Source: Euglena gracilis
Lineage: Eukaryota
NCBI GenBank assembly: GCA_039621445.1
Contig: CP154954.1
Coordinates: 17,266,589 to 17,330,588, forward strand
DNA length: 64,000 nt
Reading direction: 5' to 3'
The first letter of the stretch is position 1. Each line of letters opens with the position of its first letter. The notes under the pieces were generated by a model, which did no database searches, was not told the origin of the DNA, and was given only the letters and a program-made list of their open reading frames with translations. The position numbers and the translations under genes are program-made. Below, piece by piece: positions 7,801 to 41,400 of the stretch.

Positions 7801-10030
7801 TCTCTTTTAGCCGTGGCCAGAACGTGCCCTGAAGACCTCAACCATGTTGCTGATGAAACCAGCACTTCATTTTGGTTACATTCTCATTAATTCACAATTA
7901 TTTGGAAGAGTTGTGTTGTGCTGTGTGCGGGGCAGGCAAGAGTGGGCAGACCCAACCGTGGGATATCGAATCGTGAGGGATGAAGGTCGATGCCAAGCAG
8001 CTCTTGAGCAACGGTATCTTTTGGGCAACAAAACCATCCAATGACTCAAAGGAAGAACTTTGACAAAAACCTTCCAGACATTATCCCTTTTCCCAAAGAC
8101 CCTCCAAAGCTCTTCGGGTATCCCCAAAATCCAGCATTCAAACAAAGCATCGTGCTGCGTTTCCCCACTCCATCAAAATCAGCTAATCACCGTTCCCCCG
8201 GAATGAATTGGTTCTGCCCAGGTTGGGTGACGTCAGGCACACTTGGGCGTAGGCAAGCACCCCACTCCCTTGCACCATCAAAGACACCTCCGTCATCTCC
8301 ATCTCCCCCTCCGACAATCGTGCATCGAACTGTTCTATCGCTTCACTCAAACACAGGGTGGAGAATTGGGAGTTCAAGCGCATGTGCAGAATCCATTTAA
8401 CATCCAAGAGATTGATTTGATGAAGAAACTGTATGAAGATTATGTCACAAAAAACTAAATTGGTGTGTGACATATTCACTTTCTTCATGTCATTAAAAAC
8501 GTGTTCAGCCCGCCAAATGCCTGCCCTGAAATTCGTGGTCATGAACACGTTTTCCATGAGGGCATTTGTGGCAATGACACGTTTTCCATTATGGCATCTG
8601 TGGCATTGACACGTTTTCCATTAGGGCATCTGTGGCAATGACACATTTTCCATTACGGCATCTGTGGCATTGCATTAGGGCATCTGTGGCAATGACACGT
8701 TTTCCATTACGGCATCTGTGGCAATCAAGTGTAAGATGGAAAAAACGCTAGCATGAAAATTCGGCGACAAGTTGAGAGGCCAGGGTGGTCCTCAACGGGC
8801 GAGGCGGGTCGGGGGCACTCTACAACACAAGAAACGACCAGAAGTTGCCTTGGAGCACAACGACAAGCAGTGGGAGACGTCACGGAAGACGACACGCTTT
8901 ACACACAAAAAAGAGCCATACTTTGGTGGCCGCCGCAAATCTTAGCAATGAAAATGATATGCCAAACCGCAGGCGTCACACACAACTTTGTTCAGCTCGA
9001 CATAATTTGGATTTTTGGGAATGGCAACACCACAAAAACCACATTTGTCCTGTTGTATAGGCAGTCCCGACTGCTGCTCACGTTGAGCCACACATTGTTC
9101 AATGACGCTCGCCTCATCGAACAACAGGCTGGGTTCCAGCTCCCATCCCGTCCAGGCAACAAAGAAATCATCCAGCTCAGGATAAGATGCTTGCCGATGT
9201 TGACACAGTTTGGCGAACTCCAAACAGTTGGCAACAGCAGCAAGCTCTGCACCTACGGTGCCAGACTTTTTCTTCGTGTTGCCCTGTGCCAGCAAGGGGC
9301 CATGAAGGGGGTCAACCTTCGGCTTCTTGGCATCTTGCTGGTATACCGCAAGAGCAGCCAGGAACAATTCCGCCCTAGGGGGAGGTGGCAAAAGACCATT
9401 CACGAAGTTTGCCGTGCGTTTAGCCATAGTGGGAGGGCTGCTAAAAAAGGGGGGGTAACACGTTTTCCATCACGGCATCTGTGGCAATGACACGTTTTCC
9501 ATTACGGCATCTGTGGTAAGGCACGTTTTCCATTAAGGCTCCTTTTTTTCGGTCCAAATTTCACATTTTCGCGATTTTTTTTTCCCTTGGCGTGAATCAT
9601 GACCACGAATTTCAGGGCAGGCATTTGGCGGGCTCTGAACACGTTTTTAAACAAATTGTGGCTGAGCCCAGATTTCAGCCTGAAAACGTGTTCAGGGGGC
9701 CCCCTTCGGGGGCCCCCCTGCTGAACATGTTTTTAGGCTGAATTTGTTTTTAGGCCACAATTTGTGTGTAGAAAAATGTGTGGAAAATGGGTAAAATAAC
9801 TCGTTCACTGGGCTCCATGCAGAGCAGAGGGTGACAATCGGAAAGAATGTGGCGGCAACACACCCATGGAAAGATTCACTTCAACCTGTACATCAACAAT
9901 TGCACAATGTTCTGTACTACGACGTCCATGGAGTCCCGTGTCGTGCTCTTCAGCAGGTCCACAGAGGACGTCATGAGGTCCATGAACACCACCCAGATGA
10001 TGATGGCGGGCACCAGCGACAGGGCAAGGG
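1805..10030 (-). CDS. Multi-exon host gene, N-terminal part: membrane-anchored protein resembling euglenid receptor-type adenylate/guanylate cyclases (no catalytic domain in this window)
   Basis: Ordered minus-strand exons, boundaries approximate except where stated: ~10030-9895 ALSLVPAIIIWVVFMDLMTSSVDLLKSTT (hydrophobic TM), ~8365-8295 LSEAIEQFDARLSEGEMEM, ~8040-7950 LLGIDLHPSRFDIP, ~5060-4942 FTMMKGHPVFSQVALIGCFLDPTEDQG, 3862-~3730 FFIPTFWVTWVALFYDLN, ~2210-2092 WVNGWLTTMAFNRFTGQVALVRRQ, 1907-~1805 FPAQNGTWILLTINIAAATLSDELRSQLDGFPQ. A GT-AG intron 4941-3863 and a non-GT-AG intron 2091-1908 both join in frame. Confidence 0.6.
6404..6824. mobile_element. MITE with CCCCCAAATAA / TTATTTGGGGG terminal and subterminal repeats
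   Basis: taaactcccccaaataa at 6404 and ttatttgggggggttta ending 6824 are inverted repeats. A partial copy lies in the opposite orientation at ~48420-48577. Confidence 0.6.
7032..7445. mobile_element. MITE-like element built from GGTGAA(C/G)TTCACC palindromes
   Basis: Repeated ggtgaagttcacc / ggtgaacttcacc units at ~7046, 7119-7144, 7306-7344 and 7371-7399, with C-run ends. Boundaries approximate. Confidence 0.5.
8493..9650. mobile_element. Non-autonomous TIR element (~1.16 kb) with ~52-bp TIRs, TTAA ends and ~32-bp subterminal tandem repeats
   Basis: ttaaaaacgtgttcagcccgccaaatgcctgccctgaaattcgtggtcatga (8493-8544) is inverted at 9597-9650 with a 2-nt indel. The unit acacgttttccattacggcatctgtggcaatg is repeated ~5x at 8546-8725 and 2-3x at 9458-9535. 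Confidence 0.8.
8942..9427 (-). CDS. 161-aa ORF inside the TIR element, ending in a PHD-like Cys/His finger fragment
   Basis: C-terminus CGFCG...CDACGLAYHFHC matches C-x2-C...C-x2-C-x4-H-x2-C. The ORF fills the interior of the element. Confidence 0.5.
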   Translation of the reverse strand: MAKRTANFVNGLLPPPPRAELFLAALAVYQQDAKKPKVDPLHGPLLAQGNTKKKSGTVGAELAAVANCLEFAKLCQHRQASYPELDDFFVAWTGWELEPSLLFDEASVIEQCVAQREQQSGLPIQQDKCGFCGVAIPKNPNYVELNKVVCDACGLAYHFHC

Positions 10031-14919: not shown

Positions 14920-15165
14920 TTCTGGCCAGTTTTGGGCCAAAGGTGCTGGCCAGTTTTGGGCCAGATGTGATGGACACTTTTGCAAATGGAGAATGCCACG
15001 GGGGTTGGCCAGCTCTGGGCCACAGGTGGTGGTCAATTTTGTGCCACCTGTGGTGGCCATTTTGGGCCAGAGATGGTGGCCACTTTTGCACCACAGGTGG
15101 TGGCCACTTTTGGGCTAGAGACGGTGGCCAGTTTGGGGCCAGAGATGGTGGCAAGTTTTTGGGCA
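14920..15165. repeat. Degenerate minisatellite (ggtggccagttttgggccagaga-like unit)
   Basis: About 8 imperfect tandem units are visible. Confidence 0.7.
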
Positions 15166-18299: not shown

Positions 18300-22570
<4,271 letters not shown>

Positions 22571-24191: not shown

Positions 24192-27100
24192 TCCGCGTGT
24201 TGATGACTTTGGCCTTGGCATTTGATTTGATAATTTTCTTCTTTTAAAATACATGGCCACCATCAACACACAGAATTGTGAAAAGAAAAGGCAATAATGC
24301 CAACATTTCGTCGAAACATCCATCAAAAGCACATGTCAGAAGAGTACGCCGGGCAGCATTGCTGGTTATACCCTCTGAATGGACTGAACGAAACAGGATT
24401 GCGCCAGAAAGGGGACGGAACGGGCAGAAGGGGCGAAACAAACTTGGAAATTACTCTGATAAAATTCACAGACCAGACAGAAAATCTCCAAAAATACACA
24501 GGAAACAATTACATGGAAAAAATTTGGTGCCTGGGAGTAGTCGACCCCCCCCAGAGATTTAAATGAATGAATTTTTTTTTAGAGTGAAAATGACTTCTCG
24601 GGGGTCTTTCAAAGAAGCCTAACAGCGTATCTCCTCGCCTCACGTTCTTTAGCTCAGGTTGAGCGCACGCTGCAAAGAGCGAAACACGAACAAATGGCGA
24701 ACATAATGCCGGCCAATAATTACGCAAGCCTCCGAACGAGAATTTACCTCTTGGCCCATAATTTGTCAAAAATAACCTTAGCAGAGGATTCTGTATCACC
24801 ACGGTCAATCTTTGATCAAATCAAAAAATATTTCACTAATTTGCCCCCCCAAAAGCCCACAAAAAAATAAAAATAACCCCACCACTAATTATTGTTTGAA
24901 CGTCCGAAGTTGGAAACCAGACCCTTTTTTTGAGTCCAAATAATCAACCACGCAGGACCTGGGGACCTGCGGGGTTAATGATTTGGACTCAAAAAAAATC
25001 CTAAACAGGGCCTTCACGGGATCCACCGGGTCGGTTGATTAACAACGGACACCATTTCTTGTATATTCACGGCTGTGATTTCATCAACCTCCATCATTTT
25101 CCAAAATATCGAGTCACTCTTCTGCCTTTTGTTTTGTACTTACCTCATTGTCACTTCACCTCACGCGGGTGTGGCAGGGGCAGGACTGTACGGGAAGTCC
25201 TGGTGGAGGGGGGTTGACCCCCCACCCGAGACGTGGGCGGGGTGGGTTGACCCCCCCACCCGCCATGGTGCCCAGTCAAAAAAAAATTCCTTCGGCACCG
25301 AAAGATTAAATTCATCCTGAAAATTGCCGCCCCTTGAATACAGGAAAGCCTGGTGGGTGGTGGGCGGTGGGGGGGGGGGGTCGGACCACCGTCCCCCCCA
25401 CCAGGATCAGGGTGGGGGGGGGTGGACCCTCCCGCACACACTTCACTCATGGCGGTGGCATCAACAACCCCCCCCCAACGCCATGTGCGAACGCTTGGTG
25501 GGGGGTTCGACCCCGCATGGCAGGATGGCAAAGATAAACGCCCTTGGCGCAGAAGGCACCGACATTTTGACCAAAAAAACTGGCACTCTGAAATGCAGGA
25601 AGGGGTGGGTGGGTGGAAGGTCGCACTCCCCTGAAGAACCAGATGGTGGGGGAATAGAATTTCCAGAATTCTTGTTCAGCCTGAATTCCCAACAAGGGAT
25701 AATTGTCACCTGGAAGGTCAGACATTCAGGGACCCCGACAACGTTCTTTGTCACAAATTTGCCAGCACCGGAGATCCTGACAGTTTCCTTTTAATAATGG
25801 AAATAACCCAGGGTGGGTAGCCCAAGCCGGTCCTCAAGGCCTTTTGGAAGGGGGGGCAGGTAACCCCCCCCCCAAAACTCCAGGGGGCCTTATTTGGGGG
25901 GTCTGACTTTTGGATTGTTGCTACACGCCCCAATTGGAGAAAGCGGATCAGGGGGATCCAAACCATACCATTGCTTTGCGACCCCCCTGGGGGGGAGGGG
26001 TGGTCGCTTTCCACTCTGAAAAAACCAACCAGTCACTTTCCCCCCCCAAAAAAAAACCAGTCAGCCACTTTACCCCCCCCCCCCGGGAGGGATTGAATGT
26101 GCCTGTTTTGGTAAGCCATCGTGGTGAAGCAATGAGATTGGAGGTATGTTCTCATGTGTGGTCTCGCCCAGTTTGAAAAAAAGAGGCATAATTACATCAG
26201 AAAAATGGTCAGAAGAATCAGATTCGGACGATTTGGCACTGTCCAATGACGATGAAACCCTCTTATCATCTGACACACGAATTTCCAGCACCTTTCGGCG
26301 ACGCACAAAATTCCGAAAAATTTCCGGCGCCTGTGCCAGGCCAGCCACTTTTTTTTTTCATTTCCGGGCTTACCCCACCCCTGGGGGGGGTCTTGGCCAG
26401 AAAACCAGTAAGTCACTCTGAAAAAACCAGTCAGTCAACCCCCGGGGGTGGGGTGACACAGGTGTTAAACAATGGCATGATCCAAACCCACGGAATATGC
26501 CAAAGAAGTCACCTTGCAGACGATAGAGCAAGTTTTCGACAATAAAGCCAAAGACCGACTTTTCTGACACAAGTTTGCATTGTCTAGCACCTTGAAAATG
26601 TGTCAAAGAGCAAATATGCCACAGCAAAGTCCTTCAATTTTGTCACAAAGATTCAGGCAGCAAACAAATCAGGGAAAGACAACAATTGCGCGAAAAAAAA
26701 AAGTTTCTACAAAATTGAAATGCTGGCAAGCAGGCTTCAGGAGGTTCAGAAGGCTAACATTAATCTGAGGGGTGTGCTTTGAAAGTGGTGCGGGCTTGAA
26801 AAGCTAATATACTGCCAAAAGCAATCGAACATGGGGGATGGGTGTTTTGAGGGTTTTGAAGCCAGCTCATCGTCCAACAAACCACCTGTGGTGCCAGCGG
26901 CTATCTTTGACAGCTACGTGGTAAAAAAAAAACAGAAGTCCATCACACAATCATTCACTTGATCCTGCAGTGTTCCCAGGGCGACGGGGGCAACAGACTT
27001 AGACGGCCGGGAATGCACTTTTCTTGTGTAGTCACAAAAATATGACAGTTTTAGTGAAAATGCGCATCCGCGCATTTTGGACGCGGAATGCGCAGGTGCG

Positions 27101-28105
27101 CATTCCGGCCCTGTCGCGTGCGCTCTGAAAACACTATCCAAATCGCGTAATGGGAAGGCTCTAATATTTTGACGCGTTTTGAATGTTTGCTTCTTTCTGC
27201 ACAGTGTGCTTTGTATCACATTTCGACTGCAAAGAAGATTGTGAGGTGACTGCCCCTGACGTCAGCTACACTCCCACACCCCGCCGAGGCAGCAGTATTG
27301 CGGGATTGTCAAGATCCGAATTGGGGTGGTCTGGACGGAAAGGGGTGGTGGTGAGTGGGGTCGGGACCACCATGCAGGGGTGGGTCACATGTTTCCTATT
27401 GGAAGGTTCTAATTGGACCGGTGAGTGAGAGAGCGGGAGGGGATGCGACCTGGGTGGGTGGGTGGTTGTTTCACCGTGTAGTATACGAGGGGTCTGAATG
27501 TGCAGATGCGCATTCAGACCAATGAGTTGAAGAATGCGCTCCTGCGCATTCAGACTGTCCAGATGACTTCACTTTCCCCCCCCCCCTGCTTTCTGGGCTG
27601 ATACACGGGTACCGGTGTGTCAGTAAGCGTGGTGGTGGTTGCTCCCTTCTGAGACGTGAAGGACTGGTTTCCAGTCAGCCTTGTGATTTGTCGGTCCAGT
27701 GTTGGTACGGGGTGTGTCACACGCTTACCTGGCGATTGTGTTCCTTTGGTCCTTTGCAGTTGAGTGTGGTTTTGAACTGTGAGTCAGTCACTCCCCGCAG
27801 CCCGATGAACGGAGCGAGCACGCACGATTCTGATCCACTGTTGTCACACCGTCAACACCTGGCTTGACGTGTACTGATTGACTGTTAACGTTGTTTTCAG
27901 CTGGACGTCACACCCACAGACAGGCTGCGGTTATCAGAACACAAGCGAGACGACCCCAGACCGGCTACCAGTTCGTTACACAATGTACGACAGAATGCGC
28001 ATGTGCGCATTCTGTCGTACATTGTGTATTCTGTACCTTTTTCAGTTATATGTTACCACCAGACTGAACGATGAATGCGCACATGCGCATTGTTGAGACG
28101 TTTTT

Positions 28106-31100
28106 GTGGTAGTGCATTTCGATCGGTTTGTACCTCGTTTTACGAATGTTTGTTTGTCCTCTGACTGCTGTCTCGGCGGTTCCCGTCACTCGGCAGTCCC
28201 TACACCCCACCTCAGCATCCCCATGCCCCGACAACCCCAGTCCCTGTACCGTGCCCGGCACACGCACACCCCCGCCGTCCTCGCCTGTGCCACGGCGGGC
28301 AAGATCATCGGGCGGCTGGTGCGCGACACCTTCGTTGCCACGTACGCCGACTTCGTCACGGCCGTGGTGGACCCGCCCCACCCCCTGTACGAGTTGGTGG
28401 TCCTGGTGGCCCACACCCGGGTCCCGTTCCGCCGCTCCCCGGACAGCGACCACCTCCTGGCGGAGCTGACACGCCGCCCCCGCCGCCAGCGCACGGAGAT
28501 GCTGCTGCGGGACGCCTGGGCCTCGTACCGGGCCCACCGCCAGCACGCCTGCCCCCGCGCCCCACAGCCCCGCCTCGCCGCCGAAGACGTCCCCCTGCCC
28601 GCCACCCGCGCCCTGGGCCGCTTCCTCCGCCCCAGCGGGGTCCACCCCACCGCCCTGCTGCACTCCGCCGCCGACCGCGCCCGGCTGGCCCTGGCGCGGC
28701 AGGCCGAGCTGTGGCACGACCTGGCCGGGAACCCCGCGGTGCTGTGGTTCGACAACTACTACAAACGGCGGTACCGCAACACGCCGCCGCGCCAGATGGA
28801 TGCCCACCTGAACGTGGTGGTGGTGGCGGTGCTGCCGCTGGTGGACCCCGTGCCCCCGTTCCCCGGCTACTACTCCCTGGAGCAGCTGTGGCAGCGGCAC
28901 CTGCTGGTTGGTACCGAGCTGGCGGAGCACGGCGGCGGACGACTGCGGGAGCGCATCCGGGCGGTGGCCGACTGGGACCTGCCGGCGACGGACTTCCGCG
29001 TTCCCCTGGACGTGAGCCGGCCCCGGGTGGAGGCCCTGCCGTGGCGTCCGTTCCTCATGGGCGACCACGCCGTGTCGGCCCAGGTCGGCCTGCTGGAGGT
29101 GCTGCGCTACCTGCGGGGCTCGGTCGCCGACCACCTCGCCACCCGGTGCCGGTCCTCGTGGACGAGAACATCTGGTACCGGGTGGCGAAGCTGCTGTACG
29201 GCAGGGAGCTGCAGCGGTGGGACGTGTCGGCCGCCCTGACCCCCCTCCCCATGCTGTACGCGGTGTGGCACCCCTACAAACAGGTGGTGCACACCGTGTA
29301 CCGGCGGTTTTTGCCCCTTTTCCTCTACGTGCAGAGCGGCACCCTGGCCCGCAGCGGTACGGGCAGCTTCCACCGGCCCAACCTGCAGACCCTGGAGCGG
29401 TGGCTGGGGGCCCTCCTGCTGGTGCCGCGGGCCACCCGATTGCGCATCTGCGCATTCCGGGACCGTCTGGGGCGTCGTGACCGTGGTGGAACGCGAGGCG
29501 GCGCAGCGGGCCACCACCGTGGCGGAGCGACAGGCCCAGCTGGAGGCGGCCGAGGCCCACGTTCGGCAGCAGGGGTGCGGGGTGTGTGCCGATCAGGCCC
29601 TGGCGGGAGGAGCGTGCGATCGAGGCGGAGGAGGCGGAGGAGGCACAGCGGGCCGAGTCTGCACTGCGGGATGCCCAGCAGGTCGTGCGGATCCTGCGGG
29701 CGGACAGCACCATCCTGGCGGCGCTGGCGGATCTCCTGGGGGAGTGGGCTCCGGCATGTCTGGTCCTGGGGGAGATGGTGCGCACCTGCCACTGGGAGTC
29801 GGAAAGTGGGCCCTGCGGCGTGAGGGGCACCCAGTGAGCCTGCCTGAGCCCCCCCTGCCCCCAGGCCGGCCCGCACGGGGTGCAGCCCGCCGTGCAGTGG
29901 CACCCCGCGCTGTGAGCGTGCGGCGGAGGGGGCCCGGCTGAGGACGCGGAGCGCCGGTGGGGGCGCGCGGCCCCCCCCTTCCCCCGGGACGGGGGTGCGG
30001 AGGCAGCGTTGCCGTGGCGGACATGTGGTGCGGAATGCCGTGGGCCCCGCCCCTCCCTGCGGCGCCTCCCCGGCTGCCCCCGCCGGAGCAACGACCCACC
30101 TCCACCGGCGCCGGAGCGCCCCCCGCCAGCGACGTGCCCACCCCCGTGCAGGACGCCGCTGCGGGCCGGTCCGCGGCCCGCCCGAGGACCCGAGGGAGCT
30201 GGAGGCTGGGCCCTGCGCCGCGGGAGGTCCCAGGCGGGGAGAAGGCGACCGGGCGAGGGCGCGGCGGTGCCGGCCGCCCCGCCCGGTGCCTGTTGTGCGC
30301 GGCGGGGCATATGGGCGGATCTGGAGGCGACCGTGCGCAGTGCGCACTGTGGATGCGCGTGCGCACATGCGCAATCAGCGCTGTTTGCGCACATGCGTTC
30401 AGTGATTTACCAGATGTTGAATTGTGTTGGTTTTGACGTGCATGGCGTGCTGGGGGGGGGAGATGGTGCGCACTGCCACTGGGAGCTGCGACAGTCCGGC
30501 ACCGGCGGACACGCCCTCGAGGCACGCCAGTTTGGCCCTGCTGCTGCGTCTGGAGGCCCCCGGTGAGCGCCGCACGGAGTACATCCGGACCGTGGGGGTG
30601 GCCATGCTGTGCTGGACGCCGTGGCACGCCGCCCTGCCCGCGGCCTGCTTCAGCGAGGAGCTGTGCGAGGCGGCGCTGTCCCGGCTGGGGCGGGCGAAGG
30701 AGAGGCAGCCGGAGGCGGTGAGCACGGATCAGGTGGGGGACCGGTACGTGCTGCTGGAGACGGGTCGGTCAGGGTGCTGCGGGGTGGCAACGTGGGGCAG
30801 CGGTGGGTGGACACGGTGCGCGGACACGTGGAGGCCCTTCTGGAACGGTGTGCGGTGCGGAGCAGCGACTGCCCGTGGTGCCCGGACAGATGGTGGCGGT
30901 TGAGTCCGTGTCCGACGTGGTCCGCTACGTGGCCCGGCTGACGGAGCGGGAGTACTCCGTGGGTGAGCCCTGGCCCGCGGACTGGAGCCACCCCGCCAGC
31001 CTGCTGTCCGTGGACCTCACCCCGGAGGACGCGACGGCCACGATGCGGTACGCGTTGCTCGCCCTGGTCGGGGACGACCTGCCCAACGAGGACGTGCAAC

Positions 31101-31333
31101 GGGAGCTGGATGGCCTGTGCGCCCGTCGGAGCGAGGAGGAGGTCGTCCAGTATCTCCGGGCGTGGGACGGTGTGGCCGGGCGCGTCCGACCGGAGGCAAA
31201 GCCCAAGGCCCAGCCACAGGGCAAGCCGAAGGCGAAGCCCCAGCCAGTCGCCACCGTCCCGGTGCAACCAGCTGTTGCGAACTGGCGGGTCATATGGAGG
31301 AATTGTCTGTCAATCATCATGAGTGCGAAATAA
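28106..31333 (+). pseudogene. Frameshifted putative DDE-type transposase (Academ/DUF6589-like motif order) with a degenerate C-terminal zinc knuckle
   Basis: Stitched across frames: VLWFDNYYK...LNVVVVAV, PVLVDENIWYR, LYAVWHPYKQ, a helical insert, YIRT...CFSEELCEAALSRL, then a C...C-x3-GH remnant near 31265-31305. Strong GC3 bias; it is the first gene inside the left TIR. Frameshifts near 29140, 29470, 29580, 30530 and 30790. Confidence 0.6.
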
Positions 31334-33254
31334 CATTGTGATTGCGCATGTGCGCAAACAGTGCTGAATGCGCATGTGCGCAATCAGCACTGTTTGCGCA
31401 CATGCGCATTCAGGACTGATTTTACCAGATGTTCTGAATTGTGTTGGTTTTGACGACTCACCCGTAATACGAAGTGGACAGTGCAATTGCTGTGTCTTGG
31501 GTTATTCCACTGAGCTGTTCGATGTATACAGCGTGTTAAGAACGCTTTTGCTAACCCGTTCTCTTTCTTGTCTTGACTGAGAGGTCATGACCACAGAATG
31601 CGCATGTGCGCAAACAAACCACATATGACCGTCTTCACCATAATCTCTTGGAATGCGCAGATGCGCATTCGCAGTAACTTCGATCGTTGGGAATACACAG
31701 ACTGACTCAAACACCCGGTCAGTGTGTGGCAATGTTCTCTTTTCGCGAATTGACTTGGTGATTGCCCGGCCAGCACCCATCCGCCGCCGTGCTTCGCACG
31801 GCGCAGCCCCTGTGCGTCAGTCCGTTTTCGAGCAACCCGCTCCCTTGCGCCGCAGGCAGCGGGCCTGCCCATCCCGGCGGCTCCGCTGGTGGTGTGCGAC
31901 GGGTCCCCCACCCCCGTGCCGTCGGCCCAGAGGCCCGGGCCGGTCTCAGCACCCCACCTGGCCGGCCGCATCCCCGATCCCGTGCCGCCCGCCACGGGCC
32001 CCAACGTGTACCTCCCAGCCAACCCCGACGAGGACGTCGCCTGAGCTGGGACCCCGCACGGGCGGGGCACCCCCACCACCCGGGACACGGGGGCGCTTGA
32101 TTCGTCCGACGTTCTGGAACGATTGGGAGGACTGCGGGGGGTGCGCGCAAGTGTGTAGAACACCGGGGCGGAGCCCCCGCGCCTTGGTCAGCCTCCTTTC
32201 GGACAGCTGGGCACGAATTTTTCCTCCAAAAAATATCCGCGTACATTACGCGATTCTGCGCGACTAGCATTGCACACGTCAGGTGTGTAATTTTGTCCAG
32301 TGATTTTCGCCAAAACAGAGCCTCAGGACTCAAAATTGTGCATCCGAAATATTTCGACTTCCCCTGACCTGTCCAGAAAAACAGCACCGCTGGAGGCGCC
32401 GCCGTTGTCGAAATCGCCTGTTCTGGCCCTTTCAGAGGCATTCGTTAAAAAAAAAATTCGTTTTGGATGGTTTTTCCTCGGAGGGGATGGTACCAACTCT
32501 TGCACTGGGCTTGGGCGGGTGCGGGTGCGCGGCACCGCCCCACTGCTGGTTGCCGCGCACGTGGGGCCCCGGGCGCCGCAGGCCCCCGGGGGCGGCGGCC
32601 CCCCCGTGTGGGCAGAACGCGGACCGCCCAGGTCGCGGGGAGCGCTTGGAGACGACCGGGCCGTGCACCCGTGGGGCCCTGCCGGGGGGACGCGCACAGT
32701 GGAGATGGGCGTGTGTCGACGGCCCCGGGAGCCATACCCGTGTGCTGTGGTGGCGGCCCCTTCGTCCCGGGGGGGGAACCGTGGCCCCGCGGAACGGGAC
32801 TCGCCCGCGGACGCGACCCCCCGCGGGTCCAGGCCCGCCCGGCGGACCCCACCTGCGGGCGCGGGGCAACCCGCCCCCCGCGGCCCGCGCCCCCGCCCCC
32901 CCCCGTGCCCCGGGGGCCGGGCCCTGAGGGGGGGCGTGGCGGAGCGGCACCCGCCTGCCCACCGCGGGAGGGCATCCCTGACCGGTGTTGACCGGGCCAA
33001 CGCAACCCCCTGCGTGGACCCCACCACCCGGGGCACGGGGCGATTCGGTCCCGTTTGGGCGCTGGGGGGGGAGGGGTTGCGGCGTGGGCGGAGCCCGTTG
33101 ACCGCCTCCGTGCCCAGGCGGGATGGGTCTCCACAACGCGCTCGCAATTGCCACCCGTCTCGATGTGTGGCCCTTCACTTTTTCCCGCCGATTGCACCCC
33201 GTGCGCCCCGGGGCGGCGTAGGCGCCGTGTTCAGAGTTAAATTCGCTTGGAGCG

Positions 33255-36200
33255 GTGCAGGGGGGGGGGTGGTACCAATTCAGCTTCTATAGGGGTTGCC
33301 GCTCCGTACACACTGGGTCATGTACCATTTCTCGACCACAGGGCACCGGCACCCCCATGTCCCGCCCCCCATCGCCAGCGCCCTCAGTCCCCGACGTGCC
33401 GGAGCCCCTCACGGTACCCCCCACCCAAGGTCCCTTGCAGGAGGAGGAGGAGGAAGCAGAGGGGGAGAGGCGGAGGAAGAAGAAGAAGCGAGTGGTGGAG
33501 GCCATCGCGACATGGGCGGGCGGGAGGCCTGAGGACTGGCTGTTGCCGGGTGAGCAGCGCATCGAGCTCACCAAGGTGCGCTTCGACCTGAGCTGCCGAG
33601 AGGGGCAGGTGCGGTCGTTGGTGGCGGAGGACGTGGACCGCGTCTACGAGGCCATGCGCACCAACCCCCCCACCACGGTGCAGAGAGTCGTGGTCTGGGC
33701 GGCAGACACGATAGGTATGCGCATGTGCGCATTGTTTGTTGGTTGGTGATTTGCTTTGCATGATGAATTTATGGATGGATATGCATTGATTGAATTGGCG
33801 AATGCGCACCCGCGCAAACATGCAGTGGCTTTGGCATTCATACCTGGCTTGCAGCCTCTTTCCATCCCCCTGCCTTCCTCGTTCGTCTCGTCACAGATCG
33901 GGAGTACGTGGTGGTGGGCGGCCAGCACATGACCGCGGCGCTGAAGAGGATGGCGGAGGACTTCCTGAAGGAGCGGCGAGGTGCCGGAGCAGTACCGGTG
34001 GGTGCTGGCGAGGGTGCTGAAGCACGGCAGCTGGCCGGTGGCGACAACCAGGCGCAGCAGATGCAGGTCCACGGCCTCCCCCTCAGCAGCTTCGCGGCGC
34101 TGCTGCTGGGCGACGACGTGCGGGCGGAGGCCAACCCGAAGGTGAGGCCTGGCGGTGGCGCTGCGGAAGGCGGGGGGGGTTCGGTCGGAGCGGCGAGGGG
34201 GGCCTCACCGCGGGGCGCTGTCCAGGCCATGATGACCGAGATCACCACGATGCCAAGCGCCCCATCCCTCCTCCATTAGGTCGGTGGACCTTCAGCCGCT
34301 CGCCCATGACGGGGTAGCGGGGCCCTCGCAGGTTGCCGCCAACAGTCCAAGGTGGACTGACGCTTCGGTGGGGGCACGTCGGCCTCAGCGGCCGGAGACC
34401 GTGCCCTGGTTGATGATCGCGGCGTGGCGGGGGGCTTGGCTGACGCTGCTCGTGCCGGAGGGGCTGTCCGCTGCCTCTTCACTGGAGCCAGGTCCTCCAC
34501 CGCTCGCGCCCGCCGGTGATCCGCCTCCTCCGCCGGCGCCGAGACGCGTAAAGATGACAGGTAATCCTTCCACCGTTGCTGGAACAGCTCGTACCAGGCA
34601 GCTGGCTCCCCATGGGCGGGTGTTACGATCTGCACCGGCCAGCGCTGGTTGTGGCTGTCCCGCAGGCCCGGTCCCAGGGCACCGACCACATCTCGGGGGA
34701 TCATGTAATCCCGCAGCTCGTCGTCCAGGCCAACCTGGCGACGCAGGCGACGGGTGAAGCCCAAGGCCAGCGCGGACTCCGAGCTGCCCGCGGTGGACGG
34801 GAAGGGCATGCCCTTGTCCACCTCCCACAGCAGAAGGAGCGCTTTGCTCGGCAACCCCTGCTCCACCGCTGCCGCCCGCAGGTGGGGGTGATACCGCAGC
34901 CAAGCAGCAAGGCCTGCATCCACCTCCTCGATGGTTGCCGCGGAACGGGGAACCGGACGGGCAGCTAATTCGCGCTCAGCCCGCTGGCGCCACCGGTCCG
35001 CATCCCGATGCATGCTGGGGGTGCGGTTATACAGCCGTGGCGCTGCGGAAGGCGGGGTAAGACAGGACCCAGAAGACGGTGTGGCTCGTGCTGTATGGGG
35101 GTAATGGATGATGATGCAATGTGGGTGGTCAGGTTCGGGAGATGGCATGCAGCAGTGTGTGGCATAACATGATTGCGCACATGCGCATTCTTATAAGAGA
35201 AGAATGCGCATGTTCGCATTTTGGTCCGTTCAATGGAATGTTCATATACTTGTCTCCCGCCTCCCACACTCAGGACACGGCAACCAAGGCGTACAGCCCC
35301 CTCCAGCGCTGGGTGGAGCAGCTGGGGCAGCAGGCCATCGAGACGCTGCGGAAGCTGGAGGTGGCGAAGAAGGGGCTGACGGTGTCGGCGCTGCGGTCCC
35401 TGAGGATGCTGATGACACCGGAGGCGCGGGCGGCGGTGGTGCCGGCGCTGCTGGGGGAGAAGCCCAAGCTGCAGGACTTCGAGAAGGCGGTGAGCGACGC
35501 CTGCCTGGAGATGTGGATCAACTTCCACTGGACGGAGGCCAACCGCTTCATCCACCCGGACGTTGGTGTGTTTGTTGTGTCGCCCACCCACGTTTGCATT
35601 TCGTGCCATGGAACGTGATGGATGCAGCATGCTATGGGCATTGATGGCTTGGTGTGGGGTGCACTGCATAGTATGATTTGATTGCGAACCTGCGCATTCT
35701 CCCAACCACTCCCGTACACTGCCCTCGCAGTGGAGGACTGGGCCGCCAGACGGAGGTTCAAGGATGCCGTCGCACTCCGCCACCTGGTCGTGCGGCTCGG
35801 GCGGTGGGAGTGGCGGGAGGACGCGCCGTGCCCGCCCTTCACGGCGCTGGCCACCGCCGAGGTCTGGACGTCGGTGAAGTTCGAGGCGCTGCGGGAGAGC
35901 CTGGCCGCCCCGCGCCCGAAACCCAAGGTGGTGGTGACGGAGGACCCGGCGCACCTGGCCTGCGTGGACTACGCGCGGGAGATCCAGGGGGAGCAGAAGA
36001 CCCTGGCGAGGGTGTTTTGCTACTCGGCGTCGTCGGAGGCGGGGGTGCCGATGCAGGCGGAGCAGGCTCGGGTCCGGATGGTGGTTGTGCAGGCTGAGCG
36101 AGGGGTGGCGATCGCGCCGCAGGTGTACGCCGTGGCGGACGACGTCCCCGTGGTGGTGTTTGGGATGCCGGCGCAGGCGCTGGCCACGGTGGAGCACATC

Positions 36201-38448
36201 CACCGGCGGGTGGCCACCAAGCACCGTACCCGCCCCCCGGGCAATTGTCGCGTGACAAATCGGGCAGCACGGAGGGGGGTGACAATTTCCCGGGGTGACA
36301 ATTTGGCCGGCACAGAGGGGGGTGACAATTGCCCGGGGGCGTCAATTGCCCGGGGGCGTCAATTGCCCACCCATGTAGGCCACATTAAATCCAAATGACC
36401 AAAAACACCATCTGAAACACCAGTGAACACGCAAAAATGAACCTATGTTTGTGATATTGTGCAGAGCATTTGGTATGTGACATTTCTCAGCACGTTCTAG
36501 CGAAATAGAGGACCAATCGAGTCGTGTCGGCGAAAAGAAAGTTCACAAACATCTTCTGTGGGGGGGGGTGACAAATTGGGCAGCACGGACGGGGGTGACA
36601 ATTTCCCGGGTTGCAAATTGGCCGGCACAGCCAGGGGTGACAATTGCCCGGGGGCGTCAATTGCCCGGGGGCGTCAATTGCCCGGGGGCGTCAATTGCCC
36701 GGGGGGGGGGGCGGGTATCGATGTAGACTGCTGGGTGAGGACCGAGGTGGTGGAGTTCGGGGCGCAGCGCCACCGGCCGGTGAAGTTCTCCCTCCACGTC
36801 CTCCTCCACGACACGGAGCTGGACAGGCTCAAGGTCTGTGTCTGCAACCCCTCCCTGATGCTCTGAGTCAATGGCAATGCATAAACGCTGTGTCTCTGGA
36901 TGCATATTACGCCAGAAGAGTGCTTGGGTGCGGTCCTGGCAATGAATGCGCACTTGCGCAATCCTCCCTGCATGGGATGATTGCGCATGTGCGCATTCTT
37001 ATTTGCGTTTATAAGATGTTGCATTCCATGTCTCTGTTGGCATTCCATATGCAGTACTGAATGCGCACCTGCGCAATGCCTACCCCCTTTGCCATCCCTG
37101 CTCAGGTCCCCCCCGTCATCCTCTGGGACCGGGAGTCCAACGGCTCCTCCGACGCGTTGCACTGGGCCGTGGTGGACTACCTGTGGCGGCGGGCTGTCCG
37201 GCGACCGGTGGAGGCGGACAGCTTCCTCCTCCTCCAGCTCCCCTCGGCGGTGCGGGTGGGCCACATCCTCAACTGGACGCCCAACCCCCCGCACATGGTG
37301 GCGGTGCTGACGGGGAAGGAGAGGGTGCAGCCGGTGGAGTACACCGAGCACATCCGCCACGCCGTGCAGGAGGCCTGCCCGGTGGACAACACCGGGCTGT
37401 GGAAGCAGCTGCAGGACGCGGTGGAGAAGTCCGAGCCGCTGTGGACGGTGGTGGAGTCCGAGGTGCTGAAGCAGCTGCTGGAGGTGAAGGCGACGGAGGC
37501 CCAGGCCCGGAAGGAGGCCGTCCAGCGACGGGCGGAGAAGAAGAAGGAGCGGGCGGCCAAGCGGGCCGCACAGCGGGGGAAGGCCAAGGCCAAGCCCAAG
37601 GCCCGGCCCAAGCCCAGCACCTCCCAGGGGGTGCCCCAGTCCCTGCTGCGCACGGCCCGGATCTACGAGCGGCGGATCCGGAGGAACATCGCCCGGGAGG
37701 AGGGGCGGCCACCGGTGTTCACGTCGGATGAGGAGGAGGAGGATGAAGAGGGTGAGGAAGAGGAGGGTGATGATGAGGAGGGCCAGGGGGCCAGTGGAGG
37801 GTCGTCGCCGCTGTCGTCGCACCCCAGCTACGAGGAGGGGGAGGAGCCCGAGGGGGAGGCGGAGCCCGAGGTCCCGGAAGGCCAAGAGGAGGCCTCCGCA
37901 CAGGTGGTGGAGGGCGAGGGTGGCGAGGAGGGGGAGGGGGAGGGGAGCAGAGGGCCGCCCAGGCTGTGGTGGAGCCAGAGACCGTGGTGGAGTCCGAGGA
38001 GGAGGAAGGGGCCAGGGGGAGGGAAGAACGGCGAAGGCAGCCCGTGGTCCCGGTGCCCCCAGTGGAGGAGGTGGAGGCCCCAGAGCCCACTCCCCCCCCG
38101 CCCCGCCCAGCGCCCAAGCAGCCCAGCGGCCCCCCACCCCTCGGCATGGTCCGCCGCCCGGCGGGCAAGACCCTCCCCCCGCCCCGGAGGCCCTCACCCC
38201 CAAGGAAGAAGAAGAGGGGTACCCAGGAGGAGGAGCCGGAGGCGACGCCACCCCCCAAGCGGAGGACCTCCCTGCTGTCCAGCCCCAGCCCCAGTCCCAG
38301 CCGCCCCGAAGACCCGCCGGGCGGCAACGTCCCAAGCAGCAGCGCCCGCGCCTCCCACGCCTCCAGCCAGCCTCCCTCCCCCAGCCCCCAGCCCCCAGCC
38401 GGTGCCCGATCCCCAGCCCAGTCCCCAGCCCGCGGCCCCCAGCAGTAG
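33255..38448 (+). CDS. Five-exon cargo gene: N-terminal ParB/Srx-fold-like domain, central alpha/beta region, Lys-rich, acidic and Pro-rich tail; interrupted by a MITE
   Basis: GT-AG introns 33715-33896, 34142-35273, 35566-35730 and 36834-37105 all join in frame. The spliced N-terminus FDLSCREGQVRSLVAEDVDRVYEAMRTNPPTTVQRVVVW..D-REYVVVGGQHMTAALK..ARQLAGGDN follows the ParB pattern (R...L..S....P+.V...Y.++.G.HR..A...N). The start and the 3' end are uncertain, with a frameshift near 37940. Confidence 0.7.
34176..35036 (-). mobile_element. 861-bp insertion with a 21-bp target duplication, probably a 5'-truncated retroelement, in intron 2 of the ParB-like gene
   Basis: gtggcgctgcggaaggcgggg occurs at 34155-34175 and 35037-35057. 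The insert is open on the minus strand from its edge to TAA at 34278-34276 (…HGRAAEGPPT*), followed by a ~100-nt 3' tail. Confidence 0.7.
36229..36715. mobile_element. MITE (CAATTGCCCGGGG repeats) inserted at TA in an exon of the ParB-like gene
   Basis: TA|cccgccccccgggcaattg ... caattgccc(G)ncggg|TA. Removing it and one TA restores aag cac cgt atc gat gta gac tgc tgg (KHRIDVDCW). Confidence 0.9.
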
Positions 38449-41400
38449 CAGTCCCCCGCAGCGCGGACCTCCCTGCAGGAGCGGACGACCAAGTTCACCC
38501 TGCTGCCCTTCCCGCCGCCGCGGAAGGAGAAGTGAGTCCACAGGGGGGTGCACTCCTCTTCAGACTCCTCAGCCCAGTGCAAACATTGCGCATGCGCGCA
38601 TTCTTCTGCTCACAGTGTGCTGATTGCGCACATGCGCATTGTTTTCCCATGCACACCCCTCTCTTCCCCAGAGGCAATCCCCTCCCGTTCTGCCAACCCC
38701 TCTCGCGTGCACAGTCGACATAGCCGCCGGTGGGTACACACAGTGCACACAGCGTCCGGGCCAAAAGAATGCGCACATGCGAATTCATCCCCTCTCCTGA
38801 ATCGTGCATGCCTTTTGGATTTGGTTTACCACGCGGTGCATGCACACCGACCAGCAGCACACACCCCAAGCATACACCTAGGCGGTCCACTGGACCAGGG
38901 TGGCACACCCGAGGCCACTCGGGGGTGCACCCCTGGGAGGTGGGCCAGGTGCGAGCACGCCCCTCCCTCTCTCTCTCCCCCATGGGAGAGACACAAAGGA
39001 CCAAGGGGAGTGAACCTACCAGCGCGTCCAGCGCTGCGCCGGGGCCGGCTGCGGCGGGGCGTCGGGCGGCGCAGGCGTGCGGCCAGAGGGCCGCAGTGTG
39101 TGCGAGGCACGGCGTGCCTGAACCTGTCACACCCATCCGTCAACCCTATACACCCGGCGAAGCATACCCACGCCGCAGCAACCATGTGTCGGACCGCCCA
39201 CCTCTCAACCCCTGCACACCTCCCCCTCTATACCCCTGGCACTCTCCCCCTCCCTCCCCCCTATATCGGACCAAGGACCAAAGGACAGTGAGGGAAGGTA
39301 AGGGATGGGACCGGCAAGGGAGGGAAGGGTGTCTCCAGCCAAAGGCCCATGCTTTGCCTTCAAATCAAAATAAAGTTGGGGTGGGGGGAGGGGGGTGAAT
39401 GCGCACCTGCGCAATACCGAGGCCACCGGGGAATGGGGGGAGCCGGCGGGTACTATGCCTTCACCGGACGAGGGTGCCGCCCCGAAAAACAGTGTTTCGT
39501 GTCGCATCGGCTTCGCTTGACGAGGTGTTTCCCCCGGCCGGCGGAGAACAAAAACAGGTCTGCTCAGAGTCAAAAAAGTCGGATTCCTCAAAAAAATCCT
39601 CGCGTACCGGAAGTCGTGGTACACCTTTGCTCTCGATCAGCTCGGCTTGTCGGGTCGGCCGCCCCGTCGGGTGGTGGTGACTCACTTGATAAAAAAAGAA
39701 TGCGCGGGTGCGCAAACTTGGGCAAAATATGAAAAGTGCATTCCCGGCCGTCTAAGACAGATCCCTCACCCGAAGGAGAGACCTATCAAAAACACTCCGA
39801 GAATGGCCATAGATTGGGACACAAGAAAAAAGGCCAAGGCTCTGACTCGTAGCCGATACACACAGTGAAGCTCTGCCACTGGTGCATGTAATTTCAAAAA
39901 AATGGATTCTGCTTCAAATCATAATTTCATCAACATTACCATCGTCCCTTAAACATTGTTTTTGAATTATTTTGCATGAAAAGAAATAACACGACAGAAG
40001 GGAGGACAAAGATTTGAGAGAATCTTCGTCACCAACCGCCCCCCCCCCCGGCCATATTTTCAAATTTCCATGTCTTCCACAAAGATCCACACCTGCGACT
40101 GGTGTCACTGGTGTGTGACGAGTTTAACAAACTTATAAATTAAACTAAAAAAACAAACCACCGGGGCCATTCCAGGCAGGTTCCCGTCTTCCAATTGCCC
40201 CCATCGTTCACAAACCCTGCTTCCTTTCTGCCCACCCTTAAAGCATCGGACAATTTTCGCCTGAGCTCTCTGACCGCGCATTTGCCCCCCCCATTCGTCT
40301 CCAACTCTCTAATTGTGTTTCTGCAAACACCCTAAACTCATCAATAAATGTCGGCCAAGCCTCAGTGCTGAAGACGGACAAATCAGCCAATAGAATAAGC
40401 CTCCCGAGTGGGAAAACTGCATATTTTTTTTCGGCGGATAACTGCCTACTTAGTCTGTTGCTTCCCACCCAAACACCTGCTAACTGCTCAATTATTTTGA
40501 AATCTTGGGATGGTTAGGCAATTTGCCGCCCAAAGCAAGCATTGAAAGTTGGTGGAAAAGTTTTGTGAAAAGGAAATTTGATTTCCCAGTTTTTTTTAGT
40601 CCTGGGCTATTTTTGGAGATGAACAGTTTTTTCATTGTAAGAGGTCTGGTGAAGGCAAGATAACACCAGAGCACCTGCCCACATCGTTGGGGAGTTCCCC
40701 CGCTACCATGGGCTACAGGAGGTAGTCCCCATTGTGTAAAGACCAGCAGCACCAACGTCTGGCCAACGTCTGGCTTCAGCAAAGGGGAGTATAAGAATTC
40801 AGATCCGAACGCAAACACAAAAAAAATGGAATGGACGCTAAAAAGGCAAATAGCTTGGCCACAAAAAGGGACACCCATCCAAACGTTCACCCGCTGGGTG
40901 GGGCAAAAGATGCAAAACCGCCAGAAATGCACTCCCCAACACACATACCCCGCGTCATTGAGAATGGCAGCGAGGCCGCTGCCTGTCCAGTATGCAACGG
41001 CATCGGCCTTGTCGCAGTCCACGCTCCGCAGGCGGTCTTTAAAGGTCCACTTCCACCAGAAGGGCTTCCCCTCCTCCAACGCGTTCCAGGGCGGCTCGGC
41101 CATAGCACAGAATCCTGTGTGAGGGGAATGGGAAGTGAATGGGAGGGGGATGGGGGATCGATATGACCACATATCGGAGGCCTTCAGGAAAAGTGTGGGG
41201 TATCGCAAAAAAATGCCAATCACAGAAATTGCGGAAAATTACGGAAATACAGCTATCAACCCCGCCGGGGGGAGGGGGCTGCCAAGTGCCTCAGAGGGAA
41301 TCCTGGTCCACTTCGCCTCATGTACGCCCGGCCCACCAGCACAGGCACCAATGGTCTAGCTTCGTTGCACACAGGAGGACGGCTCCCTTTTTTGATGATA

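Follow-up and report, generated by a model that had tools for sequence, protein, structure and literature searches.

A probable large DDE transposon with CTTAG ends and a 5-bp target-site duplication, present as one decayed copy and possibly of an undescribed superfamily

What kind of mobile element combines perfect inverted ends that begin with CTTAG, a 5-bp target-site duplication and a transposase-like gene, and does any described superfamily of DNA transposons accommodate it? This question is raised by a segment of the 64,000-nucleotide stretch of DNA analysed here (hereafter, the window), and our answer, held with considerable confidence, is that positions 26998-39756 are one decayed copy of a large cut-and-paste DDE transposon in a eukaryotic genome. 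The element possibly comes from an undescribed superfamily.

This segment is a 12,759-bp insertion between perfect 26-bp terminal inverted repeats (TIRs; CTTAGACGGCCGGGAATGCACTTTTC), the left copy of which starts with CTTAG. Allowing up to three mismatches, the TIR occurs exactly twice in the window, both times with none and thus matching at 26 of 26 nt, and a match was obtained in 0 of 100 shuffles; the inverted repeat stops at 26 nt, with no extension beyond. Directly outside both TIRs lies ACAGA, an exact 5-bp duplication in the one copy examined, and TIRs flanked by a target-site duplication are the arrangement that defines a cut-and-paste TIR transposon. Both the perfect TIRs and the exact ACAGA duplication had been claimed by an initial sequence-only reading of this DNA, and both are borne out. 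The base composition also changes at the element ends, from about 47% GC in the flanks (mostly 43-52%) to 63-71% within the element. In addition, GAATGC within the left TIR equals the opening six bases of the half-site of a 20-bp palindrome (GAATGCGCAnnTGCGCATTC) that recurs across the element, whose features are as follows.

26993..26997, no strand: left target-site duplication ACAGA, read directly and identical to 39757-39761
26998..27023, plus strand: left TIR, 26 nt, 0 mismatches
27059..28092, no strand: left subterminal/upstream region at about 50% GC; the palindrome is present in six copies
27977-28028: 52-nt palindrome in the left subterminal region
28223..31333, plus strand: gene 1, DDE transposase-like and disrupted, with homologs at 45-50% identity
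29768..30485, plus strand: internal insertion or duplication in gene 1, 0.69 kb
31339..31411, no strand: three tandem 26-nt units, each with the palindrome, just past the gene 1 stop
33357..34279, plus strand: gene 3, earlier called ParB-like, with GC3 periodicity
34276..35013, minus strand: gene 4, an open reading frame of about 245 codons whose codon-position GC pattern fits the minus strand
35238..36398, plus strand: gene 5, two blocks in one frame, GC3 0.92-0.96
36252-36368 and 36568-36683, no strand: two 117-nt repeats with 17-nt tandem units, 93% identical
37061..38623, plus strand: gene 6, an N-terminal domain followed by charged, proline-rich low-complexity sequence
38583..39717, no strand: right subterminal region with five palindrome sites
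39731..39756, minus strand: right TIR, 26 nt, 0 mismatches
39757..39761, no strand: right target-site duplication ACAGA

The palindrome has 26 sites in the element as against one in the other 51 kb of the window, and its expected number in 200 first-order Markov simulations of the element was 0.04 on average and 1 at most; because of this distribution inside and outside, the element can be regarded as one unit. The 44 strand matches are all confined to 27059-39714, and the sites span from 63 nt inside the left end to 14 nt from the right TIR. They adjoin both ends and occur upstream of gene 1, in intergenic sequence and within introns elsewhere in the element, and one of them is inside the gene 1 coding sequence. 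Since the palindrome is absent from all four contigs of distant relatives that were searched, it is not family-wide. It is a candidate binding site for the transposase or for another protein of the element. Codon periodicity is absent from the left subterminal region, which holds six of the copies.

The other four or five genes of the element contain spliceosomal introns and have no recognisable function, and none of the 100 six-frame open reading frames of at least 75 aa in the element matches any Pfam family at E<=0.001. Gene 3 consists of two exons (33357-33714 and 33897-34279) separated by a 182-nt GT..AG intron (33715-33896), and once spliced it reads through to one stop, at its very end; because a canonical intron restores the open frame in this way, the element is considered to reside in a eukaryotic genome. 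The intron holds two palindromes, one of which overlaps the 5' splice site. Gene 3 also contains the letters that had been read as ParB-like (...YVVVGGQHMTAALKRM...), and the ParB-like cargo claimed on first reading found no support, as no ParB match to the exons was obtained in Pfam (E up to 10), PHROGs, NCBIfam or PDB sequences, or in the ESM Atlas, where the best score of 0.80 is at chance level, all of these searches having used the exons singly, so that the intron would split a ParB domain. Gene 4 gave no match in family searches. The two blocks of gene 5 can be joined by frame-keeping GT..AG introns in 14 candidate pairs, one of which (35566-35730) holds a palindrome. The N-terminal domain of gene 6 (37118-37609) has a homolog in one uncharacterised 424-aa protein (30% identity over 165 columns, E 2e-13), and the GC3 phase of this gene shifts near 37950.

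Gene 1 encodes the motifs WFDNY (28745-28759), VDENIW (29158-29175), VWHPYK (29263-29280) and SEELCEAALSRL (near 30652-30687), all of which align with family columns that vary little or not at all, and the transposase motif order DN...D...[A/G]xWH...ExxxE proposed earlier is thereby confirmed. The family comprises 221 cluster representatives (50% identity) at E<=1e-3, 72 of them at E<=1e-10 and nine at E<=1e-30. D, N, D, W, H and E are each conserved in its alignments (A1 and A2), the acidic residues being those in W-x-D-N, L-L-V-D-x-N and E-E-x-x-E-A, and a conserved G-x-W-H stands just past the last core strand. Among 47 members scanned, none has a Pfam match to a transposase or to PF20231 (DUF6589; E up to 10 for the latter), and no Pfam family at all is matched at E<=0.01 by any of 24 full-length members. 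All 20 clusters that were looked up come only from environmental or run-derived assemblies.

Two proteins were modelled, namely a full-length relative (P0003, by AlphaFold; pLDDT 89.3, pTM 0.83) and the core alone (P0001; pLDDT 88.8). The P0003 model predicts an RNase H-like core, which a long coiled-coil hairpin (residues 391-517) interrupts ahead of the glutamate helix. P element and Hermes transposases are the top two families for P0003 in Foldseek, in which neither model has a match at E<=0.001, and they are also the best solved matches over the whole catalytic domain (Z 9.2-9.5, about 280 residues). The alignments span model residues of about 130-620, with Z 9.5, 280 aligned residues and an rmsd of 6.2 for the P element transposase (6pe2_A) and Z 9.5, 274 aligned residues and an rmsd of 4.9 for Hermes (4d1q_A), and these whole-protein matches stand among coiled-coil matches of Z 10-12 that reflect the hairpin only. 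With the core alone no chain reaches Z 8, and about 40 of 50 VIA rows are, by our reading of them, RNase H-like enzymes; the rows include retroviral integrases (Z 6.3-5.7), RNase H domains, Tn5, P, Hermes, RAG1, Transib and ISCth4. Overall, the structural scores are modest, and the predicted RNase H-like fold together with the conserved D/D/E columns supports the DDE-type enzyme in a TIR transposon that the sequence-only reading had proposed, and had made dependent on the presence of such a fold.

By described criteria, CTTAG ends with a 5-bp duplication (in one copy) fit no superfamily with which we compared them, in agreement with the earlier claim that ends and duplication lie outside the familiar groups. 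The P element transposase of Drosophila (6p5a, 6pe2) is the best Foldseek match for both models, aligns in VIA at Z 9.2-9.5 over about 280 residues in both halves of the catalytic domain, and shares with the modelled enzyme an RNase H-like core with a large insertion before the glutamate helix. P elements, in contrast, have a THAP DNA-binding domain, a GTP-binding insertion and an 8-bp duplication, whereas here there is no THAP and no Pfam match of any kind, the insertion is modelled as a coiled-coil hairpin and the duplication is 5 bp. The hAT transposase Hermes (4d1q, 6dwz, 8sjd; VIA Z 8.8-9.5 over 274-286 residues) has an all-helical insertion at the same place and likewise a conserved histidine past the last core strand; hAT elements nevertheless make 8-bp target-site duplications rather than 5-bp ones and have a C-terminal dimerisation domain, and a hAT Pfam match was found in none of the 47 members here at E up to 10. 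Past the last core strand, hAT, P, MuDR, Kolobok and Dada carry C/DxxH, at least in the excerpted text of PMC10045372, whereas in the G-x-W-H here the position three residues ahead of the His is neither Cys nor Asp.

Transib and its CMCT clade are described in the excerpts of PMC12730594 as having CA..TG termini (CAC..GTG), C(2)C/H(3-4)H motifs and duplications of 2-5 bp. The 5-bp duplication of the present copy is within that range, and the enzyme likewise has a predicted RNase H-like core; the termini here are CTTAG..CTAAG, however, neither cysteine/histidine motif appears in the A1/A2 consensus lines, in which the span tested for them has one conserved Cys (V-R-x-C-x-W) and one conserved His (W-H), and HzTransib (6pqn_A) matches the core at only Z 4.4. 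KDZ elements (Kyakuja, Dileera, Zisupton) have a KDZ transposase domain, which none of the family members scanned here matches in Pfam, and duplications of 7 bp without TIRs in Kyakuja and of 8 bp in Zisupton (excerpts of PMC12730594), as opposed to 5 bp with TIRs here.

A tentative but plausible reading is that the element is the first member to be defined anatomically in a new eukaryotic DDE superfamily, with CTTAG ends, a 5-bp duplication, G-x-W-H, a coiled-coil hairpin, private intron-bearing genes and an end-to-end palindrome as address label—the ends, the promoters and even a splice site would then carry a putative binding site of the transposase or of some accessory protein. That the element is instead a divergent branch of a described superfamily, most likely of Academ or the DUF6589 group (PF20231, which we take to be Academ), and hence a new family and not a new superfamily, appears to us rather unlikely. 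Academ elements, too, are long and multi-gene. The sequence-only reading had already likened the motif order to Academ/DUF6589-type DDE enzymes, and of our searches only the ESM Atlas points the same way. For the catalytic core, PF20231 is present in 14% and 33% of the members of the two nearest ESM Atlas clusters (scores 0.94 and 0.93; 187 and 184 of 256 features shared) and the ten best named matches are all in the PF20231 family or its clan, but the Atlas figures are unmeasured for parts of proteins, and one third of shuffled proteins also obtain ten of ten agreeing matches. The lack of PF20231 in all 47 members and of any Pfam family in the 24 full-length ones argues against such a branch, as do, within the excerpts of the sources cited, Academ duplications of 3-4 bp (AcademX) or 9-10 bp (AcademH) (PMC10045372) compared with 5 bp in the one copy here, and an Academ-encoded XPG-type nuclease or helicase (PMC10045372, PMC10799480), set against 100 open reading frames without a Pfam match.

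As assembled, the copy in the window is non-autonomous: a homolog-guided tblastn frame map shows at least six frame changes in gene 1, which is further interrupted by a 0.69-kb insertion. The reading frame is f2 to 29140, f1 to about 29478, f2 to about 29572 and f3 to 29819, and after the insertion f3 (30474-30521), f1 (30529-30816) and f2 (30896-31249), with a further f3 segment (30762-30875) from homolog P0167 only; switches of GC3 phase coincide with these changes. The insertion is bounded by direct repeats of 31 nt (29768-29798) and 30 nt (30456-30485), which differ by a 1-nt indel and enclose 657 nt at about 80% GC. Past the first repeat there is an in-frame stop, the second repeat runs on collinear with the homologs, and 30360-30438 is an 87% copy of 31369-31455. 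Reading of the sequence revealed no GT..AG pair that restores the gene 1 frame across the insertion. Neither the frame changes nor the insertion had been remarked on before. The perfect ends agree with the recent insertion that had been suggested, but the heavy disruption of the transposase gene weakens this suggestion.

Long-read assemblies tend to contain indel errors where the sequence is GC-rich, and some of the frame changes could stem from assembly errors. It is improbable, though, that they all do and that we are looking at an intact, autonomous copy: its ends match perfectly, as does the duplication, and the conserved motif residues of the family are all still encoded, but at least six frame changes fall within about 3 kb of gene 1, whereas genes 3, 4 and 5 (about 2.5 kb) each hold a single GC3 phase, which makes a uniform error rate unlikely, and a 0.69-kb insertion with flanking repeats of 30/31 nt and an in-frame stop is no indel-type error.

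As there is one copy only, we infer the link between ends and enzyme, and one might suppose that the two come from different elements, nested or captured, so that this enzyme is not the mover of these ends. We consider this very unlikely, since the same palindrome is found at both ends, around and inside gene 1, in introns and between genes, and, of the 25 longest inverted-repeat pairs listed, no second one encloses gene 1. Most doubtful is the idea of a virus-like integrated or episomal element, some 10-13 kb long, with the DDE enzyme as its integrase, which would fit three close enzyme relatives on contigs of 10,040, 10,559 and 11,028 bases as a discrete unit of similar size, as well as the many genes without known function and the repeated promoter-like palindrome, but which is opposed by the lack of a capsid, polymerase, packaging or other Pfam match in the 100 open reading frames, of PHROGs matches at E<=0.01, of viral fold matches at E<=0.001 and of relatives of the enzyme in viral_contigs, and by the spliceosomal introns, while a multicopy transposon also assembles into repeat-bounded contigs of element length.

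For the cut-and-paste DDE transposon that we prefer, the enzyme would be a DDE-type transposase of about 800-900 residues, with a predicted layout of an N-terminal helical domain, an RNase H-like core and a coiled-coil hairpin between the last core strand and the glutamate helix. It would bind the 26-bp ends, excise the element and join it to a target whose strands have been cut 5 bp apart, and subsequent repair may have given the ACAGA duplication. The present copy, if still mobile, would need a transposase from another copy.

Additions to the 23 superfamilies in which Repbase places eukaryotic DNA transposons (a number given in the excerpted text of PMC10045372) are rare. The absence of Pfam matches in all 47 members and the restriction of all 20 clusters to environmental or run-derived assemblies point to a common eukaryotic mobile element that is invisible to annotation pipelines, and the family is indeed common in environmental eukaryote sequence and absent from named protein databases. 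What the window adds to the protein matches is a pair of ends with their target duplication, a set of genes and a putative binding site. If the family is a deep branch of Academ/DUF6589, the range of ends and duplication lengths would be widened for that group. Furthermore, a confident model with an unusual coiled-coil insertion is a starting point for biochemistry, and the element-wide palindrome provides a testable case of a transposon that may carry its own dispersed recognition sequence.

The element in the window is a real, well-bounded DNA transposon of 12,759 bp, and its ends were read directly as follows.

Terminal inverted repeats (TIRs) of the element
26998-27023, + strand: left TIR, 26 nt, CTTAGACGGCCGGGAATGCACTTTTC
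39731-39756, - strand: right TIR, exact reverse complement of the left TIR

The inverted repeat is limited to these 26 nt, with no extension, and the five bases immediately outside either TIR are ACAGA. With up to 3 mismatches allowed, CTTAGACGGCCGGGAATGCACTTTTC has just two matches in the whole window, and no match arose in 100 dinucleotide-preserving shuffles. The perfect TIRs and exact ACAGA duplication described in the sequence-only reading hold on rereading. A search of viral_contigs with the TIR gave no match. GC content is 63-71% across 28-40 kb (2-kb bins) and mostly 43-52% in the remaining window, and the high GC of the element lies in blocks with strong codon periodicity, in which third-position GC (GC3) rises to 0.99 and between which lie spacers of ~50% GC.

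The flanking DNA is unique within the window and rich in microsatellites, including (GA)71, (CA)80, (CAA)40, and (GT)73, with frequent runs of G or C. In the left flank, units of 32 nt and of 24/48 nt are repeated in tandem at 8545-8725, 9458-9539, and 14995-15164, and there is also an isolated block of 58% GC (20001-22000) surrounding the (GA)71 array, whose open reading frames (ORFs) gave only a low-complexity Pfam match far under the cut-off. Nothing else was found among the 102 flank ORFs (24 + 78), and an Rfam scan of the window gave no match. The arrays, microsatellites, and G/C runs point to a part of a large eukaryotic genome that is rich in repeats and poor in genes. In a search of sequencing runs, those from one organism contained 0.32-0.36 of the sampled words; rows with small shares say nothing about habitat.

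The DDE enzyme encoded by gene 1 belongs to a large family that has no name in current annotation resources. With the frame at 28097-29239 of the window as query, the search retrieved 221 cluster representatives at E<=1e-3, of which 72 fall at <=1e-10 and 9 at <=1e-30. The nearest relatives show 45-50% identity, and the length of full-length members is 690-890 residues. In the alignments, the motifs W-x-D-N, R-x-P-x-D-x-x-R, L-L-V-D, and W-H-x-Y, together with an E further on, are invariant or nearly so; E-Y-x-R and E-E-x-x-E-A-x-L-S-R-L are strong consensus blocks. Gene 1 of the window encodes every one of these conserved motifs, so the motif order first noticed by eye is real and is the signature of the family.

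Annotation resources offered little for these proteins. None of 24 full-length relatives matched Pfam at E<=0.01, and when the 47 members of alignment A1 were compared with Pfam at E up to 10, the result was 22 families, each matched by one member (best E 0.018), with no transposase family and no PF20231 (DUF6589) among them. NCBIfam gave no meaningful match, and a search of PDB sequences with the family profile gave 4 chance-level matches, with E of 0.25 or more. For all 20 clusters inspected, the source is exclusively ENA, JGI/IMG, or Logan assemblies; the contigs measure 1.3-11 kb, and the sole name that the clusters carry is "hypothetical protein." Three of the closest full-length relatives, P0164, P0165, and P0167, are on contigs of 10,040, 11,028, and 10,559 bases, respectively; these lengths, near that of the element, suggest repeat-bounded or complete units. 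Distant relatives (27-31% identity) are present on 4 short contigs (2.1-3.6 kb) in metagenome_contigs, which show no element ends, and viral_contigs, queried with the family member P0001 and with A1, contained no relative of the enzyme. One of the four, the 3.6-kb contig L004, has five CCCTAA telomere-type repeats at 3440-3471, ~800 nt downstream of its transposase ORF.

The fold of the enzyme was predicted with AlphaFold2 for the relative P0003 (799 residues) from 47 sequences, giving a model with pLDDT 89.3 and pTM 0.83. Its N-terminal region is helical and is followed by a mixed sheet, in which the first Asp sits midway along a long strand and the second immediately follows a short one. W-H opens the helix that follows the last core strand. 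A hairpin, whose two helices (391-446 and 450-517) are both very long, then precedes the helix bearing E-E-x-x-E. In Foldseek against the PDB, the top rank went to P element transposase (E 0.044, probability 0.90) and the next to Hermes, with no match at E<=0.001. Structure alignment with VIA gave Z 9.5 for 6pe2_A (280 aligned, rmsd 6.2), 9.5 for 4d1q_A (274 aligned, rmsd 4.9), and 9.2 for 6p5a_A (281 aligned), all covering residues of about 130-620 of the model; the search with the full model is dominated by generic coiled-coil matches, and the higher rows (Z 10-12) cover the hairpin only.

P0001, a naturally truncated relative of 403 residues, was folded to exclude the hairpin (pLDDT 88.8). 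The resulting list is coherent: in our own reading, RNase H-like enzymes make up ~40 of its 50 rows, and the remainder are mostly sugar kinases and actin-like proteins. Lentiviral integrase cores scored Z 6.3, 6.2, and 5.7, and the lower rows include RNase H domains of reverse transcriptases, Tn5 (Z 5.0), P (4.8, 174 aligned), Hermes (4.8, 162 aligned), RAG1 (4.7, 175 aligned), HzTransib (4.4), and ISCth4; no chain reached Z 8, and just 9 reached Z 5. P element was again the top Foldseek match (E 0.037). A BFVD search gave nothing at E<=0.001. We conclude from these models that the enzyme probably has an RNase H-like catalytic core of the type in which a large insertion precedes the glutamate helix, although the structural statistics are modest. 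The core appears in both models, and the large insertion is common to the enzyme model and the enzymes of P, hAT, and RAG/Transib.

As found in the window, the element is a decayed copy. Homolog-guided tblastn mapped gene 1 in the following pieces.

Pieces of gene 1 (tblastn, all + strand)
28223-29140: frame 2
29143 to about 29478: frame 1
29483-29572: frame 2
29622-29819: frame 3
30474-30521: frame 3, resumed
30529-30816: frame 1
30762-30875: frame 3, with P0167 only
30896-31249: frame 2

Adjoining pieces abut, leaving no space for introns between them, and switches in GC3 phase coincide with the frame changes. Homology is broken by an insertion between 29819 and 30474, which is associated with a repeat of 31 nt at 29768-29798 that recurs as 30 nt at 30456-30485, the two being separated by 657 nt of ~80% GC. 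There is an in-frame stop after the first repeat, and beyond the second the homology is restored; in its 3' part the insertion is an 87% copy of the spacer downstream of gene 1. This 0.69-kb insertion was considered as a spliceosomal intron and rejected because, in our own reading of the sequence, no GT..AG pair restores the frame. Likewise set aside was a likeness between the tail of the relative P0005 and frame 1 of the window, which is compositional (Arg/Gly-rich) and was scored with filters off. A single GC3 phase is kept throughout genes 3, 4, and 5; most of the damage therefore lies in gene 1, and perhaps in gene 6. The perfect ends had been taken as a sign of fairly recent insertion; they stand, but the heavy damage to gene 1 weakens that claim, and because the ends amount to 52 nt, a small target, they are compatible with the decay of the gene.

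The interior holds further genes.

Accessory genes of the element
33357-34279, + strand: gene 3, with a canonical intron at 33715-33896
34276-35013, - strand: gene 4, open frame
35238-36398, + strand: gene 5, two same-frame blocks joinable by a GT..AG intron
37061-38623, + strand: gene 6, whose N-terminal domain shares 30% identity with a single uncharacterised protein of 424 residues

The exon phases of gene 3 match and its spliced frame is open up to one terminal stop; this open frame and the canonical intron suggest that genes of the element are read by the spliceosome. An earlier suggestion of ParB-like cargo was based on words around YVVVGGQHM in this gene. When each exon was searched separately, nothing ParB-like was found in Pfam (E up to 10), PHROGs, NCBIfam, or PDB sequences, and the best ESM Atlas score (0.80) was at chance level; the intron would cut such a domain in two, which may hide it from searches by exon. 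The GC3 phase of gene 6 changes near 37950. None of 100 six-frame ORFs of the element (>=75 residues) matched Pfam at E<=0.001. Between genes 5 and 6 there are two 117-nt repeats (36252-36368 and 36568-36683; 93% identical) that contain 17-nt tandem units (CAATTGCCCGGGGGCGT). The ~800 nt at 32400-33200 are roughly 80% GC, show codon periodicity in no phase, and have no family match; this stretch is neither clearly coding nor similar to the other spacers of the element.

A 20-bp palindrome recurs throughout the element. With one mismatch tolerated in 12 core bases, GAATGCGCAnnTGCGCATTC has 26 sites within the element vs. 1 in the other 51 kb of the window, whereas 200 first-order Markov simulations of the element gave a mean of 0.04 and a maximum of 1. 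A 21-nt palindrome unit is present in 23 copies, in agreement with this count.

Placement of the palindrome
Left end: 63 and 91 nt inside the end
Right end: 14 nt inside the TIR
Upstream of genes 1, 5, and 6: pairs of sites
After gene 1: three tandem units
Gene 3 intron: one site overlapping the 5' splice site, and also inside the intron
Gene 5 intron: inside the intron
29439-29456: single site in gene 1 coding sequence, encoding L-R-I-C-A-F

This distribution joins the ends and the interior of the element as a single unit. The TIR, too, contains GAATGC, the six outermost bases of the half-site. At the position of the coding site, relatives of ~50% identity have R-I-C-A-L or R-I-C-A-Y, keeping R-I-C-A, and related elements may preserve the palindrome DNA in their coding sequence. 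It was found in none of the 4 metagenome contigs with distant relatives. At 27977-28028, ~200 nt before gene 1 starts, there is a 52-nt near-perfect palindrome with two 25-nt arms, 100% complementary and 2 nt apart, and a copy of the 20-bp motif at its centre. The 20-bp palindrome would be the leading candidate for a site of protein binding.

The element differs from every superfamily checked in features that define membership, in keeping with the initial view that it bears no familiar signature. According to PMC12730594, the CMCT/Transib clade is defined by CA..TG ends and C(2)C/H(3-4)H motifs; the 5-bp duplication of our element fits this clade, but those ends and motifs are absent. The same source gives 8-bp duplications for Zisupton and 7-bp duplications, without TIRs, for Kyakuja. 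According to PMC10045372, C/DxxH after the second D is common to hAT, P, MuDR, Kolobok, and Dada. Our enzyme keeps the His, but its motif is G-x-W-H, and no THAP, BED, or hAT dimerisation domain was found. The hAT/P-type duplication is 8 bp, in contrast to 5 bp here. Academ, as described in PMC10045372 and PMC10799480, has duplications of 3-4 or 9-10 bp and encodes a nuclease or helicase; neither duplication length, nor a nuclease or helicase, is seen in the element. In the ESM Atlas, the nearest clusters to the catalytic core score 0.94 and 0.93, share 187 and 184 of 256 features, and have PF20231 in 14-33% of members. This nearness agrees with the proposed Academ/DUF6589 resemblance and serves as a lead, to which the HMM scans add no confirmation; in the literature found on DUF6589 the term is just listed, with no statement of the type of element hosting its proteins. 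The literature on new superfamilies, AcademH, Lanisha, and dinoflagellate transposons, searched apart from Repbase and Dfam, yielded no description of such an element.

Overall, the element is predicted to work like a P/hAT-type cut-and-paste element. On the basis of a single copy with its one duplication, and of structural scores that are modest, we tentatively propose that it could be a new superfamily carrying an element-wide recognition palindrome.
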